Shown in pieces: positions 31,748 to 36,308 of a stretch of DNA of 64,000 nucleotides. Every line of letters starts with the position of its first letter. Position 1 is the first letter of the stretch. Made by a program: the position numbers and the translations under genes. This DNA comes from an uncultured Candidatus Poseidoniales archaeon (GTDB lineage: Archaea > Thermoplasmatota > Poseidoniia > Poseidoniales > Thalassarchaeaceae), in contig CAWVXH010000002.1 of the NCBI GenBank assembly GCA_963934165.1, positions 123,746 through 187,745 on the forward strand, read 5' to 3'. The notes beneath the pieces are model-generated. The model did no database searches, was not told the DNA's origin, and saw only the letters and a program-made list of their open reading frames with translations.

Positions 31748-31978
31748 ATGAAGGCTTACCGTGTGATTGGAACATTCCGTAATGGACGGACGAATCAAGA
31801 GTTCACCACAGATATTGTTGCAGAAGATGAAGGGGACGCTGAACACCGTATTTTCTCTAATTTTGGTAGCCGCCACGGGTCGCCACGGAGAAACATCAAC
31901 ATTATTTCACTTGAGCAAATCAAACCCTCAGAGTCTATCGCGCCAGTAGTGGTTTCTCACTTCAGGGGCGGCGAGTAA
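31748..31978 (+). CDS. rpl18a: 50S ribosomal protein L18Ae (LX/eL20)
   Basis: MKAYRVIG..F...AE...AEHRIFSNFGSRH...RRNI.I; canonical TTTATA box 30 nt upstream. Confidence 0.92.
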   Translation: MKAYRVIGTFRNGRTNQEFTTDIVAEDEGDAEHRIFSNFGSRHGSPRRNINIISLEQIKPSESIAPVVVSHFRGGE

Positions 31979-32850
31979 TCAAAATCAGAGTACCCCAGCG
32001 TCAGATGGGCGTCCCCGAATCTAGTGGAATAGGCAGTTTTTATCTCATCGGTGAAGAAAGCCTCCCATTTTCTTAGTTTACCAGTTGAGATGTGGTGATG
32101 GGCCTCTATTTCTTCCTTAGTCATCCTATTCATATCATGGGCCCCTGCAACTTTCACACAATCCCTAACAATCTCTTCTTCAAAATTCAACCACCTAAAA
32201 ATCCGCTCAAATGAACCATCATAATCATTCATCATATCCTCCATTTTGATTGTTAGAACATTTTCCATGGTCCTCCATCCAACCATCTGCTGGACGGTGA
32301 TTCCCGCATAACCATCCATTTCGAAGACAAGACCCTCATCATCCCCCAGGCGACGCAAGTTTTCTTGGTAAGATATCCCCCCTAAGGACTCAACAAAACT
32401 CTCTCGTTGCCCTAGAGTGGCGCCATCCAATGGCCAAGGCACTTGGGGGAACCTTCTTTCAGGATTAGTGAAGTCAGTATTCAGGCACCACTGCTCGTCA
32501 CAGCGTTGATGGTACAGATATCCAGACACGATGACATCACGGGGATCTCTGATTATGCGCACCCCCCTATGCTCCTCTCCGATGACGCCCTCATCGACCA
32601 TACCGTGAATCAATTGAATCACGTCGGTGTTTTCTGGAATCTCCTTCACCAGCCCCCTGAGCCCACAAAACTTCCAACCCCTTTTTCTTGCGAGATCTCT
32701 GAAGACCGATCTAGTCAATTTAGTCCCAACTTTATGATGTGTGAGGAGGAACACCGGTGCGTCCAAACCACTCCCAAATACACTTCTTCGAATGTAGAGA
32801 ATAAACTGTCTAACTATCCACAATCCCGGCACATACATCCAGACAACCAC
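31957..32850 (-). CDS. PAPS-dependent sulfotransferase domain protein
   Basis: 5'-PSB-like THHKVGTKL, 3'-PB IIRDPRDVIVSGYLYH, KMEDM, and C-terminal G..RKW...F. Start taken at GTG 32850 (alternative ATG 32838); 3' end overlaps rpl18a by 22 bp. Confidence 0.85.
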   Translation of the reverse strand: MVVWMYVPGLWIVRQFILYIRRSVFGSGLDAPVFLLTHHKVGTKLTRSVFRDLARKRGWKFCGLRGLVKEIPENTDVIQLIHGMVDEGVIGEEHRGVRIIRDPRDVIVSGYLYHQRCDEQWCLNTDFTNPERRFPQVPWPLDGATLGQRESFVESLGGISYQENLRRLGDDEGLVFEMDGYAGITVQQMVGWRTMENVLTIKMEDMMNDYDGSFERIFRWLNFEEEIVRDCVKVAGAHDMNRMTKEEIEAHHHISTGKLRKWEAFFTDEIKTAYSTRFGDAHLTLGYSDFDYSPPLK

Positions 32851-32956
32851 TGGCTTGCGGGCGAACATCCAACATGAAACAATCGGAACCAACCAAACCA
32901 CACGAGTGACGGTTGGGCGCAACGGTGAAAACAGAATCATGAGAGGCGATGCTGTG

Positions 32957-33508
32957 ATGAAGAAATCCTTCATGCGTCAGTATTGGCGCATTCAACAAAG
33001 CCAAACCCTGATTTCAATGGGATTTTGGTGTACAACTCTTACCCTCCTCCTCTGGCCGTTGGTGAGTTGGAGATTCAAAGCGATGGACCCAGTATTCGGA
33101 ATACAACCAACTTATCTTGGTTTAATTGGGATTAGCCTAGGGGTCCTGTCTATCGTTCTGTTAATTGGCTGGGTTTACGATGTTTCATTCGGCCTTTGGC
33201 GCGAACACCTAACGGTTGTGCAAGAACGAAATCCATTTACAACATACAAAGTAAATGCACCATTTGGTATGCTACTTGCACAAACTAATACAATTTTGAG
33301 AAAAATGTCTGATGATGATGATGAGATACAACGCCATTGTGATTTCGTCGATCGTTGGTTAGAATGGAATTCGGAACAGGAAATTTGGGCCAGAACAATG
33401 TCTTCTTGGAAAGAAATTGTAGGGGACGAAGACCCTTTCCTCTATCATCTAAGTGAAGAGGCACGAACAAAGCTTGAAACTGCTGCAGATGAAATGCAAG
33501 ATTTTTGA
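32957..33508 (+). CDS. Hypothetical membrane protein (two TM helices)
   Basis: Two hydrophobic segments and an acidic C-terminus; stop overlaps the cysQ start. Start uncertain (32939, 32957 or 32972). Confidence 0.7.
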   Translation: MKKSFMRQYWRIQQSQTLISMGFWCTTLTLLLWPLVSWRFKAMDPVFGIQPTYLGLIGISLGVLSIVLLIGWVYDVSFGLWREHLTVVQERNPFTTYKVNAPFGMLLAQTNTILRKMSDDDDEIQRHCDFVDRWLEWNSEQEIWARTMSSWKEIVGDEDPFLYHLSEEARTKLETAADEMQDF

Positions 33509-34317
33509 TCGGAGTGACGCCCTTGGACGCAGAATCTATTGTCAAACTTGCAGAAGAGGCCGGGCTTGCAATTTTAGAAATATATAATCGCGCAGAAGGA
33601 TTTGATATTTGTAAGAAAAGTGACAATTCGCCTTTGACAGAAGCCGACATCGCAGCGCACAACGTCATTGTCGAGGGATTACAGTCATTGAATAACTTCC
33701 CAATTGTTTCGGAGGAAGGTAACGTAGGCGACCCTCTTTCGACTAACACTTGTTGGTTGGTCGACCCCCTCGATGGGACAAAGGAATTTATCAAGCGGAA
33801 TGGGATGTTTACAGTTAATATTGCCTTGATGAAGAAAAAAGGTAAACGTTGGTCACCACTTTTTGGGGTTGTTCATGCGCCCGTGACGAATACTACTTGG
33901 TGGGGAGGGGCATTACATCCTTCAGAAAGACAGGGCCCAAGTGGTTCCGGTTTGATGAGAGTAAACCCATCAAATCCCCCAAACCCAACAAGGCTAGTCG
34001 CAAGCGGATCACACAGAGGGGAGAAAGACGAATCTTTTGCAAAAACTCTCGGAAATTATGACTTAATTAGAATGGGCTCTTCTCTGAAGGCTTGTATTGT
34101 AGCTGAAGGTAATGCCGACTTATATCCTCGGTTTGGCCCCACTTCTTGTTGGGATATAGCAGCAGCACACGCAGTCGTCGCCGGCGCTGGGGGTTGTGTG
34201 TTAGGGCCTTCTGGCAAAACGCTTGATTATGATTTAGTTGACGATATTTTAAACCCATATTTCATAGTTGCAGCCGACAATCGTTGGAACGAGCAATGGA
34301 TAGCTCATCAGGACTGA
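33505..34317 (+). CDS. cysQ: 3'(2'),5'-bisphosphate nucleotidase (PAP phosphatase)
   Basis: KSDNSPLTEAD, SEE, WLVDPLDGTKEFI, GSSLK and YPRFGPTSCWDIAAAHA motifs. Confidence 0.93.
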   Translation: MIGVTPLDAESIVKLAEEAGLAILEIYNRAEGFDICKKSDNSPLTEADIAAHNVIVEGLQSLNNFPIVSEEGNVGDPLSTNTCWLVDPLDGTKEFIKRNGMFTVNIALMKKKGKRWSPLFGVVHAPVTNTTWWGGALHPSERQGPSGSGLMRVNPSNPPNPTRLVASGSHRGEKDESFAKTLGNYDLIRMGSSLKACIVAEGNADLYPRFGPTSCWDIAAAHAVVAGAGGCVLGPSGKTLDYDLVDDILNPYFIVAADNRWNEQWIAHQD

Positions 34318-35201
34318 ATCCACCAATCGGGGTTTGAAAAACCAGTCAACTCTTCCAAAAGTAAAAGGTCTTCATTCACCTTTTCTGCTAGAATCAATCG
34401 TTGCTCATCAGTGATTCCTCGCTTTTCAGGAGCTTTACTAGATAGAACTGGTATTTTGTATACATCCACACCCCTTCTTTGCAACCGCTTCACAACAGGT
34501 CCCTTTACGAAATTAGGTAATAAATTTGCAAGGCTACGAAATAGGCGGCCGAATAAAGTGGGGCGCCGCCTCTCAGAAGCAGTATTTGTGTTGTGTACCA
34601 TATCTAAATCAAAGGAAGAATCCTCGACGCCAATGTGCTCACAAATTTCTTTCAACACCTTCAATGGTTCCATCCGCATTCTCTTTGCCTCAATAATCAA
34701 AATAGAATCCAAATCAAAAAATTCCAACCACCTTGAGATGGAAGAACCATAGAGCGTATCGCACTGTAAACGAGAGTCAGACCAAGCCACCTCAAAATCA
34801 TTCCAATCCATATTATTTTCTTTATCTTCCTCTGTGCTGATGACCATATTCCAATGAGAAATCGTGCGACTGACCGGCTCCCGCAGAGAAACAATCAATT
34901 TCGCATCAGGCCAAGTTTCACTAATTCTCTGGGGGGCTGTTGGACAGGCCAATGCGTGAACCGAACAATCTATTCGAACTCCACTTTCTACGAAACAGCC
35001 AGCATACGCCTCCCAATTCGGTGGCGAAGCGTCTCTAGAAAAAGTTCCTTTGTGCGTGGCTACAATATTCGGCTCCTTAGGATCAGATACACAAATACCT
35101 GGGTGTTGAGAAAGGGCATCTGCTAACCAAGTGGTGCCTGCTTTGGGTGCACCCAGAAGAAAAGCACCGACGTCAGGAACCACTGGCTGACCGGCCTCCA
35201 T
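34308..35201 (-). CDS. PAPS-dependent sulfotransferase (heparan-sulfate-ST-like fold)
   Basis: GAPKAGTTWL...L.QHP, KEP, and KLIVSLREPVSRTISHW motifs. Confidence 0.88.
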   Translation of the reverse strand: MEAGQPVVPDVGAFLLGAPKAGTTWLADALSQHPGICVSDPKEPNIVATHKGTFSRDASPPNWEAYAGCFVESGVRIDCSVHALACPTAPQRISETWPDAKLIVSLREPVSRTISHWNMVISTEEDKENNMDWNDFEVAWSDSRLQCDTLYGSSISRWLEFFDLDSILIIEAKRMRMEPLKVLKEICEHIGVEDSSFDLDMVHNTNTASERRRPTLFGRLFRSLANLLPNFVKGPVVKRLQRRGVDVYKIPVLSSKAPEKRGITDEQRLILAEKVNEDLLLLEELTGFSNPDWWIQS

Positions 35202-35309
35202 AGAACCCCCGCTCGCCCTTCAGATATAGGAATTCACACTTTAATGGAGACCCCAACCATCCGTCGCAATGAAATACAGACCATATTTCGACCCAGCCCC
35301 AGAGGTGTA

Positions 35310-36197
35310 ATGATGAGCAACAAGGTAGTTTGGTTTACAGGCCTTTCAGGAGCAGGAAAAACGACAATCGCTATGGCAGCGGCAGACAGATATGGTTGTG
35401 AAGTGCTTGATGGCGACACGATTAGAGACTTCTTCGCGAACCACGACTTCAGCCGCGAAGGACGAGAAAGACACCTTCTCGGTATTGCTAAGATGGCGAA
35501 TATGATCTCGAAGCACACAGATGTTCTTTGTTCATTCATCACTCCTTACGAAGACGTTCGAGAGAAGATTCTAGAAATTCTCCCAGACAATGCAGTAATG
35601 GTACACATCTCAACCTCTCTCGAAGTTTGCGAGGAAAGAGATGTGAAAGGCCTCTACGCAAAGGCCCGCACCGGCGAGATATCCAGTTTTACAGGCATTA
35701 GCGACCCCTTCGATGAACCAAAGTGTGCACACATCACTTTGAATTCTAGTGGTAGTGAAGGCAATTCAGTTGACGATATGGTAAAGCAACTAGCACACTT
35801 GTTTGAGAAACCCAAGGCAACCCTTCTTCCAGGTCGCTGGCAACCCTTGCATGTTGGGCACGAATGGCTCATTCAGAGAGAACTCGACCAAGGTAAGAGA
35901 GTAGTAGTTGGTATCCGAGATACCCCAGTATCAGATTCAGACCCCTTCTCAACAGATGTTCGCAAGAGGATGATTGAGCATAGGTACGCCGACGAAGATG
36001 TTGAGGCATGGGTCATGCCTGATATTGAAGCAATTTCTTACGGCCGCAAAGTGGGCTATGAACTCCGTGAGGCTGACAATATACCCCCAGAGGTATTCGC
36101 AGTATCTGCTACGGGCGTCCGTGGTGGAAACAGAGCTAATGTTTCTGACAGAGTCATGGAATTCATGATCAATGAAGGAATTTGGGACGGCGAATAA
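35310..36197 (+). CDS. cysC: Adenylyl-sulfate kinase fused to a C-terminal HxGH nucleotidyltransferase domain
   Basis: Kinase motifs WFTGLSGAGKTT, LDGD, RDVKGLY, FTGISDPFDEP. C-domain motifs GRWQPLHVGH, GIRDT, ISYGRKVGY, VSATGVR. Confidence 0.92.
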   Translation: MMSNKVVWFTGLSGAGKTTIAMAAADRYGCEVLDGDTIRDFFANHDFSREGRERHLLGIAKMANMISKHTDVLCSFITPYEDVREKILEILPDNAVMVHISTSLEVCEERDVKGLYAKARTGEISSFTGISDPFDEPKCAHITLNSSGSEGNSVDDMVKQLAHLFEKPKATLLPGRWQPLHVGHEWLIQRELDQGKRVVVGIRDTPVSDSDPFSTDVRKRMIEHRYADEDVEAWVMPDIEAISYGRKVGYELREADNIPPEVFAVSATGVRGGNRANVSDRVMEFMINEGIWDGE

Positions 36198-36232
36198 TCC
36201 CACCCCCCACCTTCTTCTCTGCACTCTTTTGG

Positions 36233-36251
36233 CGGCGATTTCACATCGCCG
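36233..36251 (+). terminator. Stem-loop after cysC
   Basis: CGGCGAT-TTCAC-ATCGCCG, preceded by a pyrimidine-rich tract. Confidence 0.4.
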
Positions 36252-36308
36252 AAGACAATCTTAGCCTAAGCGACGGCTTCATTGCACTCCTACACCCCCC
36301 ATGGCTCA

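Follow-up and report, generated by a model that had tools for sequence, protein, structure and literature searches.

Introduction

All sulfation begins with the activation of sulfate, as does sulfate reduction, both assimilatory and dissimilatory. To our knowledge only two types of sulfate-activating enzyme have been described, Sat and CysDN. For Sat it is established that making adenosine 5'-phosphosulfate (APS) from ATP and sulfate is strongly unfavorable on its own. Here we analyze a 64,000-nucleotide stretch of DNA (the window) from an uncultured Candidatus Poseidoniales archaeon (GenBank assembly GCA_963934165.1, contig CAWVXH010000002.1, positions 123,746 to 187,745 of the forward strand). 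A gene on its + strand (35310-36197; all coordinates are those of the window), delineated from its open reading frame (ORF), Pfam matches and homologues, encodes a 295-residue protein in which an APS kinase is followed by a small HxGH nucleotidyltransferase (NT). Our sequence analysis points to a probable synthase of 3'-phosphoadenosine 5'-phosphosulfate (PAPS) whose sulfurylase half comes from a new, non-orthologous family.

Homologues of the fusion are annotated in public databases only as 'adenylyl-sulfate kinase' or 'cytidyltransferase-like protein'. Full-text literature searches, outside of which lie most subscription journals, returned no paper that describes a small NT joined to an APS kinase or a new type of ATP sulfurylase. 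Metagenome-assembled genomes (MAGs) of Marine Group IIb (MGIIb) encode cysD, cysN and cysC for PAPS production, together with sulfotransferases, and the passage that reports this does not mention the fusion (PMC6864105).

The fusion protein

The fusion is encoded in a single frame (35244-36197, + strand) with in-frame ATG codons at 35310 and 35313. Its nearest homologues are 293-294 residues long. Logan contigs from four seawater RNA libraries cover 35311-36266, with their first bases at 35311-35318. The homologue lengths and the contig starts therefore place the start at 35310 or 35313, which gives a product of 295 or 294 residues. An earlier note on this DNA, made from the letters alone, had proposed a gene at 35310-36197 for 295 residues, and the ATG codons, homologue lengths and RNA contigs confirm it. 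The contigs also suggest that the gene is transcribed, and only suggest it because DNA may be present in RNA libraries; parts of the flanks without contig cover carry no information. In all four independent libraries the contigs begin at most 8 bases from the start codon at 35310/35313. Such contig starts cannot prove a transcript start, and give a weak hint of a leaderless transcript. An assembly chimera was rejected, with thousands of near-identical proteins of about 294 residues present in marine metagenomes and the RNA-library contigs spanning the domain boundary without indels.

The APS kinase (CysC) domain comprises residues 1 to about 165 (35310-35800, + strand). It matches PF01583 over residues 5-144 (E = 3e-39; 134.9 bits, cut-off 21.1) and over model positions 3-151 of 152. 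Its TIGR00455 score of 133.2 bits falls just below the NCBIfam equivalog cut-off of 138.7, and it matches NF002059 at 2.3e-42. APS kinases are characterized by a P-loop, an LDGD motif, an ISP-type motif and KGLY..FTG..P. The translation contains GLSGAGKTT (the P-loop), LDGDTIR, FITPY and KGLYAKARTGEISSFTGISDPFDEP, and an alignment revealed that the same columns are conserved among its relatives. The full-length PF01583 match and these motifs identify the domain as a member of the APS kinase family.

The NT domain of about 125 residues (35811-36194, + strand) is the candidate ATP sulfurylase. It was delineated by a PF01467 match, a family alignment and an AlphaFold2 (AF2) model. PF01467 (CTP_transf_like) matches residues 172-239 with the N-terminal half of the model (E = 1.7e-5; 25.5-25.9 bits, cut-off 21). 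The AF2 model of the full-length fusion has a pLDDT of 92.3 and a pTM of 0.75. In the model of the NT domain (pLDDT 93.6) there are three long strands, and a long coil lies between residues 77 and 99. The Pfam matches of both domains bear out the proposal of the earlier note that an intact CysC domain precedes an HxGH nucleotidyltransferase of about 125 residues. The motifs quoted there (GRWQPLHVGH, GIRDT, ISYGRKVGY and VSATGVR) are all present in the translation. They are not chance resemblances, because they are conserved in a family of hundreds of clusters.

Replacement of cysD-cysNC in Poseidoniales

To place the fusion in its genomic context, the ORFs of the window were compared with 16-kb stretches around cysD in two genomes of the same genus (G103 and G107) and one of genus g6 (G121). 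All four loci share both flanks. On one side are a PcrB-like gene, a small ORF, a membrane protein and a CysQ-like gene; on the other are prefoldin, FtsY, a response regulator and the next gene. The flanking products of the window are 45-81% identical to those of the three genomes. Between the flanks, the three genomes carry cysD and a cysN-cysC fusion, and the window carries the kinase-NT fusion. G121 also retains a sulfotransferase, 64% identical to that of the window. The kinase parts of the fusion and of cysNC are just about 40% identical, indicating that the cassette was exchanged and not remodeled. The role of CysD and of the CysN GTPase thus falls to the new cassette, and within it to the small domain, its sole new element. 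This is our strongest argument for a sulfurylase function.

The distribution of the two systems was analyzed in 151 Poseidoniales genomes, 58 of which reach a completeness of 90% or more. None of the 151 yielded a Sat. CysD scores above the cut-off in 19: four genomes of genus g1 (G069, G103, G107 and G127), two of g6, 3 of 3 of g13 and 10 of 10 of g17. Orthologues of the fusion (small domain, E <= 3e-26) are present in 31: the genome of the window (G000), G081 and G149 in g1, 9 of 12 genomes in g6, 7 of 7 in g7, 8 of 9 in g9, two in g4, one in g5, and G132. Only G132, from another family, has both CysD and the fusion. Its fusion lies on a 3.3-kb contig (G132:C43, L013) and is 94% identical to that of the window; the sulfotransferase on this contig is 83-93% identical, and the bin has its own cysD-cysNC. 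Because of this 94% identity in a genome of another family, we read the contig as probably an MGIIb contig mis-binned in an MGIIa-family bin. The anti-correlation with sat/cysDN anticipated in the earlier note was thus found in Poseidoniales, with G132 as the sole overlap, but it is not universal, since some bacteria carry both systems.

Within g1 and within g6, some genomes have the fusion and others have CysD. Given the non-independence of related genomes, we take this as two or more switches, each inside one genus, and not as a statistic. A search for APS kinases gave 49 matches at E <= 1e-20. CysN-CysC frames of about 640 residues beside CysD account for 19 of them and the fusion of about 300 residues for 29; the remaining match is a 151-residue fragment on a short contig. 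Many matches at about 1e-5 are P-loops of FtsY and similar proteins. Homologues of the window sulfotransferase are present in 48 of the 151 genomes, only in genera with fusion or CysD, and 41 of the 48 have either system. No match to this sulfotransferase query was found in 3 of the 31 fusion genomes (G009, G023 and G075) and 5 of the 19 CysD genomes.

In 13 further genomes there are weak matches to the small domain only, which coincide with their NadM genes except for one ORF of G102. This ORF (G102:C19:6927-7667; 261 residues), in an MGIIa-family genome, weakly matches both the APS kinase (5.5e-10) and the NT (5.9e-12, 34% identity). This could be a fusion gene that has diverged or is decaying.

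The nucleotidyltransferase family

A search with the 135-residue C-terminal part against 1.84 billion representative proteins gave 688 matches at E <= 1e-3 and 223 at E <= 1e-10. The domain was aligned with 44 free-standing members that are 30-43% identical to it (residue numbers below are those of the 135-residue domain). R16, H24, P52, R86, G89 and R111 are invariant in these 45 members. G15, P19, H21, G23, G35, R43, P77, G85, V88, Y90, S106 and T108 are nearly invariant. The family motifs are GRWQPxHxGH, IRDT, NP(Y/F)T, PDI, YGRxVGY and ISATxIR; the domain in the window also has DPF. H21, H24 and R111 occupy catalytic positions, and R43, R86 and Y90 are specific to the family.

The best match of the NT profile in the PDB is the archaeal nicotinamide mononucleotide (NMN) adenylyltransferase (NMNAT) MJ0541 (1.8e-16), followed by phosphopantetheine adenylyltransferase (PPAT; about 1e-5). 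Sat is not among the 60 PDB matches listed for the profile. Comparisons of the NT model gave a similar picture. Foldseek against the PDB returned PPAT and NMNAT at E of about 1e-4, and no Sat chain is among the matches listed. A VIA-align fold search that covered 48,161 chains ranked NMNAT first (1f9a; Z 12.9, rmsd 2.7, 123 residues aligned) and then PPAT (Z 12.0). Other NMNAT and nicotinate mononucleotide adenylyltransferase (NaMNAT) chains score Z 9-11. Sat chains follow at Z 9.2 (Thermus thermophilus, 1v47), 7.5 (2gks), 6.4, 6.0, 5.8 and 5.3, with human PAPSS1 at 5.7. The HxGH and SxTxxR motifs (H21, G23, H24, S106, T108 and R111), the PF01467 match and the fold scores (Z 10-13) show that the NT domain belongs to the HIGH-motif nucleotidyltransferase superfamily, in which NadM is its nearest relative. 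It represents a distinct and widespread family, a NadM-like offshoot.

Several known identities were considered for the domain. The fold comparison with Sat and NMNAT that the earlier note had proposed upheld the superfamily, with NMNAT nearest (Z 12.9) and Sat further away (Z 9.2-5.3). A shortened Sat was rejected, because NMNAT and PPAT outrank Sat in both the sequence profile and the fold searches; by this ranking the domain is a NadM-like offshoot. With about 125 residues it also has no room for the N-terminal domain of Sat. The fusion protein has no match to the Sat catalytic domain (PF01747) at E <= 0.01. Sub-threshold matches to the C-terminal part of this model occur in 11 of the 45 NT members (best 6.4e-6), a weak signal. 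The representative P0206 reaches 23.8 bits (cut-off 24.3) over model positions 151-211 only. None of nine NadM controls matches PF01747 at E <= 0.1. In NCBIfam, the domain gives weak NMNAT and PPAT matches. Its NadM scores (TIGR01527/NF002243 pair) are 34.5 bits against a cut-off of 127 and 24.5 against 181.2, and they cover only the N-terminal 70 or so model positions, which places it outside NadM. The fusion contains neither CysD (TIGR02039) nor CysN GTPase domains. A housekeeping NMNAT was rejected on account of the separate NadM in G000 and in 150 of the 151 Poseidoniales genomes. A PPAT or FAD synthetase was rejected on account of separate genes in the same genome for PPAT fused to dephospho-CoA kinase (DPCK) and for a RibL-like protein.

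Association with APS kinases in other lineages

The best 150 family representatives were classed by their kinase partner, detected with phmmer. The kinase precedes the NT in 46 and follows it in 25; 61 are NT alone of at most 165 residues. The other 18 are longer and have no phmmer kinase match, and one of these passes PF01583. A scan that took one genome per prokaryotic species yielded at least 571 loci, of which the best 80 were analyzed: 38 from MGIIb and 42 from elsewhere. The 42 are distributed among Omnitrophota, Planctomycetota including Scalindua, Saprospiraceae, Lewinellaceae, Pyrinomonadaceae, other Acidobacteriota, Woesearchaeota, Nanoarchaeota, Iainarchaeum, Patescibacteria, Saccharibacteria, Thaumarchaeota, Marine Group III (MGIII), a gammaproteobacterium, Marinoscillum and, at L104, plasmid NZ_CP085304.1 of the cultured Haladaptatus pallidirubidus. 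A fused kinase follows the NT at 23 of the 42 loci and precedes it at 10; at 6 the NT abuts a separate kinase gene (in both orders). The NT has no such partner at the other 3, and at one of these the contig ends. The two fusion orders and the split forms indicate that NT and kinase were joined repeatedly and independently.

Sulfotransferases are the commonest family among the 143 ORFs that flank the 42 loci (13 Sulfotransfer_3 and 3 Sulfotransfer_1). They are followed by methyltransferases (12), ADI-like amidinotransferases (11) and radical SAM proteins with B12-binding proteins (9). In 15 non-MGII carrier genomes sampled for canonical sulfurylases, whose completeness is not given, neither Sat nor CysD scores above the cut-off in 12. 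Among these 12 are the Haladaptatus genome of 6.3 Mb and a complete Pyrinomonadaceae chromosome of 4.5 Mb.

Viral genomes also encode the family. In IMG/VR it occurs at 352 loci, and the best 80 (L105-L184) were analyzed. The NT is fused to the kinase in 11, has an APS-kinase-like gene in the locus, mostly abutting, in 60, and is alone in 9. Tailed-phage-like contigs carry the NT beside or fused to an APS-kinase-family gene at 71 of these 80 loci. One phage family annotated as 'kinase', phrog_10255, matches the NT over its positions 135-225. Ten partner kinases were tested against PF01583, and all pass; four are full length (147-231 bits), and six are short forms that cover model positions 4-110 only (41-84 bits). 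The short forms belong to a class of the APS-kinase family with 111-156 residues and without the C-terminal third of PF01583, whose genes always lie directly beside the NT gene. Members are found in Thaumarchaeota, MGIII, Saccharibacteria and phages (L076, L083, L095, L103, L139, L153, L162 and L176).

Some loci differ in their partners or surroundings. In Omnitrophota and Planctomycetota a recurring cluster surrounds the NT-kinase fusion (L070, L072, L074, L075, L079, L081, L082, L085, L090, L092 and L096). Judged from ORF sizes, spacing and pooled Pfam tallies, not from families per ORF, it resembles a gene set for the biosynthesis of a sulfated product. The NT is joined to a DHHA1 domain in P0246 (432 residues) and to DUF6717 in P0156 (249 residues). 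A viral contig (L125:4039-4983) encodes an APS kinase with a HAD hydrolase in 315 residues. The DHH and HAD partner domains could be phosphatases of 3'-phosphoadenosine 5'-phosphate (PAP) or pyrophosphate (PPi).

Genomic neighborhood

The genes around the fusion are consistent with a sulfation function. A sulfotransferase gene, a PAPS consumer, diverges from it (34308-35201, - strand; PF00685 1.8e-12, PF13469 4.7e-11). Next is a gene for a CysQ-like 3'(2'),5'-bisphosphate nucleotidase of the inositol-monophosphatase family, for PAP removal (33505-34317, + strand; PF00459 1.7e-42). A second sulfotransferase gene is located at 31957-32973 (- strand; PF00685 6.9e-8). With two sulfotransferases, the CysQ-like gene and the APS kinase present, local genes cover all steps of a sulfation cycle but APS synthesis. 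The earlier note had called this the sole step missing from the cluster, and the identities of the neighbors agree with that. Downstream of the fusion are prefoldin and then FtsY.

Between the second sulfotransferase and the CysQ-like gene is a gene for a predicted membrane protein of 217 residues (32855-33508, + strand). It has no Pfam match, and its 3' end overlaps the start of the CysQ-like gene. The protein is conserved and syntenic in G103, G107 and G121 (76-81% identical), and may be part of the sulfation module, for example a transporter or an anchor. The second sulfotransferase has no counterpart at the compared loci of the same three genomes (L022-L024). It appears to be a lineage-specific insertion beside the module.

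The genome of the window measures 1.47 Mb in 55 contigs and is 82.7% complete. Judged by how close homologues and related loci are named, it belongs to MGIIb. Neither Sat nor sulfite reductase was found in this incomplete assembly. No CysD scores above the cut-off; one PAPS_reduct match lies at the 22.5-bit cut-off and is not CysD-grade. The fusion gene is the sole APS kinase found. Since sulfite reductase was not found, PAPS probably serves sulfation and not assimilation. Within the window there is no APS reductase or sulfite-oxidation context. Three other genes of the genome match PF01467. One is RibL-like and adjoins riboflavin genes, another encodes a NadM-type NMNAT (full-length NF002243 match, 2.2e-23), and the third (L005) encodes PPAT fused to a GTP-dependent DPCK.

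Discussion

The exchange at the cysD-cysNC slot, the near-complete mutual exclusion with CysD, the association with APS kinases and the presence of a separate NadM make it likely that the NT domain is a new, non-orthologous ATP sulfurylase and the fusion a minimal two-domain PAPS synthase. The earlier note had read the protein as a bifunctional enzyme whose small domain may make APS, and the computational tests suggested there all favored this reading. We lean, with less assurance, towards a more general proposal. The NT family would be a third, independently evolved, NMNAT-derived and GTP-independent ATP sulfurylase with an obligate APS kinase partner, in which channelling replaces GTP hydrolysis, and the pair would form a portable PAPS module. 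The balance also tips slightly towards this module having displaced cysDN-cysC in abundant marine archaea and having spread in CPR (candidate phyla radiation)/DPANN lineages, planctomycetes, Omnitrophota, Bacteroidota and tailed phages. Phages could then have their own sulfate-activation system.

In the mechanism that we propose, a NadM-type ancestor would have lost a segment that is longer in NMNAT and gained the conserved arginines in IRDT and YGRxVGY. HxGH-superfamily members bind MgATP by HxGH and the motif equivalent to ISATxIR, and the NT domain would bind it in the same way. R43, R86 and Y90 may take the place of the NMN-side residues of NadM and form a pocket for a small oxyanion. Sulfate, the presumed second substrate, would attack the alpha-phosphate of ATP to yield APS and PPi without GTP. 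The fused APS kinase would turn APS at once into PAPS, which would pull the first step forward, and APS may be channelled between the domains. This near-obligate coupling to the kinase would supply the pull that GTP hydrolysis by CysN gave the displaced system. The two adjacent sulfotransferases would consume PAPS, and the CysQ-like phosphatase would clear PAP.

Several observations weigh against a sulfurylase function. The closest relatives of the NT family in sequence and fold are NMNAT and PPAT, not Sat. The modules with short kinases in phages and Thaumarchaeota may do something else. Some carriers also have a canonical system: CysD is present in 2 of the 15 sampled genomes (Lewinellaceae and Scalindua) and Sat in 1 (a Pyrinomonadaceae genome), and at an Acidobacteriota locus outside the 15 (L093) cysD-cysN divergently adjoins an NT-kinase fusion. 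These bacteria weaken a strict one-or-other rule. They do not refute the sulfurylase, because two sulfate-activating systems are known to share a genome in rhizobia, where nodPQ exists beside cysDN. The genome set also consists mostly of incomplete MAGs, and its related members cannot be taken as independent samples. Finally, 7 of the 48 sulfotransferase-bearing MGII genomes have neither fusion nor CysD. Five of the seven were examined further, the other two being G025 and G083. In one of the five (G073) the contig ends 175 bases past the sulfotransferase, which explains the missing system; the other four (G067, G007, G059 and G141) also have no CysQ-like gene.

The first of these observations are shared by an alternative in which the NT adenylylates another phosphorylated or anionic substrate. 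The kinase would either 3'-phosphorylate the product, as DPCK does after PPAT in CoA synthesis, or supply the substrate, following the logic of NadR or RibF, and the outcome would be a nucleotide other than PAPS. The nearness to NMNAT and PPAT, the many phage and thaumarchaeal partner kinases confined to model positions 4-110, and the presence of CysDN or Sat alongside the NT in some bacteria are all compatible with this, and it fits the short-kinase phage modules best. The locus in the window is poorly accommodated, however. Its kinase is an APS kinase of near-trusted score with all motifs, and the cassette has taken the place of cysD-cysNC in situ, next to conserved genes for a sulfotransferase and a CysQ-like protein. 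At loci elsewhere no flanking family is commoner than the sulfotransferases, and NadM, PPAT and RibL-like proteins are encoded separately. In addition, the NT has xxIxYGR where the NadM of MGII has a conserved DDPPNWVxHA. We therefore regard another nucleotide product as unlikely.

It is more doubtful still that the NT has no catalytic role and serves the APS kinase as a nucleotide-binding or regulatory module, much like the allosteric APS-kinase-like domain of fungal Sat, with APS coming from an unrecognized enzyme or from uptake. The unusual shortness of the domain and its model with three long strands and the coil at 77-99 would suit such a module. Nevertheless, family members of 30-45% identity share the catalytic HxGH and SxTxxR residues with little or no variation, and the NT also occurs as a free-standing gene beside the kinase, as would seldom be the case for a regulatory appendage. 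No other source of APS was found in the genomes without Sat and CysD. Very improbable is a different reaction on APS or PAPS (APS pyrophosphorolysis for ATP, an ADP-sulfurylase-type reaction or adenylyl transfer from APS), since, for all that linkage to APS kinase shows a shared metabolite only and sulfurylase reactions are reversible, it would leave fusion-bearing MGII genomes without an APS source despite their retained sulfotransferase and PAP phosphatase, and no APS reductase or sulfite-oxidation context is seen in the window.

If the NT family is indeed a sulfurylase, metagenomic pathway calls would be corrected. Carriers now look unable to activate sulfate, because their genes are named only kinase or cytidyltransferase-like. 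PAPS production in MGIIb, among the most abundant archaea of the ocean, would be explained. A PAPS synthase of 295 residues would be useful for enzymatic sulfation, and the family would provide a clean case of an enzyme of NAD synthesis recruited to sulfur metabolism. Given the copies in phages, one would also have to ask what these viruses sulfate.

Among known systems, metazoan PAPSS1/2 and the bacterial Sat-CysC fusions resemble the fusion in combining an APS kinase and a HIGH-motif adenylyltransferase on one polypeptide. As in PAPSS, the kinase comes first, and the presumed product is likewise PAPS for sulfotransferases. Unlike in these proteins, the second domain has about 125 residues instead of about 400 and no Sat N-terminal domain, and the whole fusion has only 295. 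In sister genomes CysD-CysN(C) holds the position of the fusion both in the gene order and in the pathway, and within g1 and g6 it and the fusion are mutually exclusive. Its fold is unrelated: CysD is a PAPS-reductase-like ATP pyrophosphatase that works with a GTPase, whereas the fusion has no GTPase. Any energetic pull would thus have to be provided by the fused kinase and the removal of PPi.

NadM (MJ0541, PDB 1f9a) shares the GRxQPxHxGH, NP(F/Y/W)(S/T) and PDI motifs with the NT. Alignment with nine Poseidoniales NadM sequences revealed that the NT has W for F in the first motif and IRDT in place of IGSS. After the PDI strand, the NT has xxIxYGRxVGY, whereas NadM has a longer DDPPNWVxHA...G segment. 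In NMNAT we take this segment to hold nicotinamide through an Asn and a Trp. Compared with 1f9a, the NT is about 25 residues shorter, at profile positions 80-90. NadM is present in 150 of the 151 Poseidoniales genomes, whereas the NT is patchy and tied to APS kinase. The NadM of MGII is itself unusual. It has (E/Q)GWR(V/I)R (L004, L186-L193) where the NT has ISATxIR and archaeal NMNAT has SGTxxR, and, universal as it is in the order, it does not reach the NCBIfam cut-offs for NMNAT (82.7 against 127).

The PPAT-DPCK fusion, present in the same genome as L005, also combines a small HxGH adenylyltransferase with a P-loop kinase that acts on the 3'-OH of the product. Human CoA synthase is another fusion of the PPAT-DPCK type. 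The kinase in these proteins is DPCK; in the fusion described here it is an APS kinase, set in a context of sulfotransferases and a PAP phosphatase.

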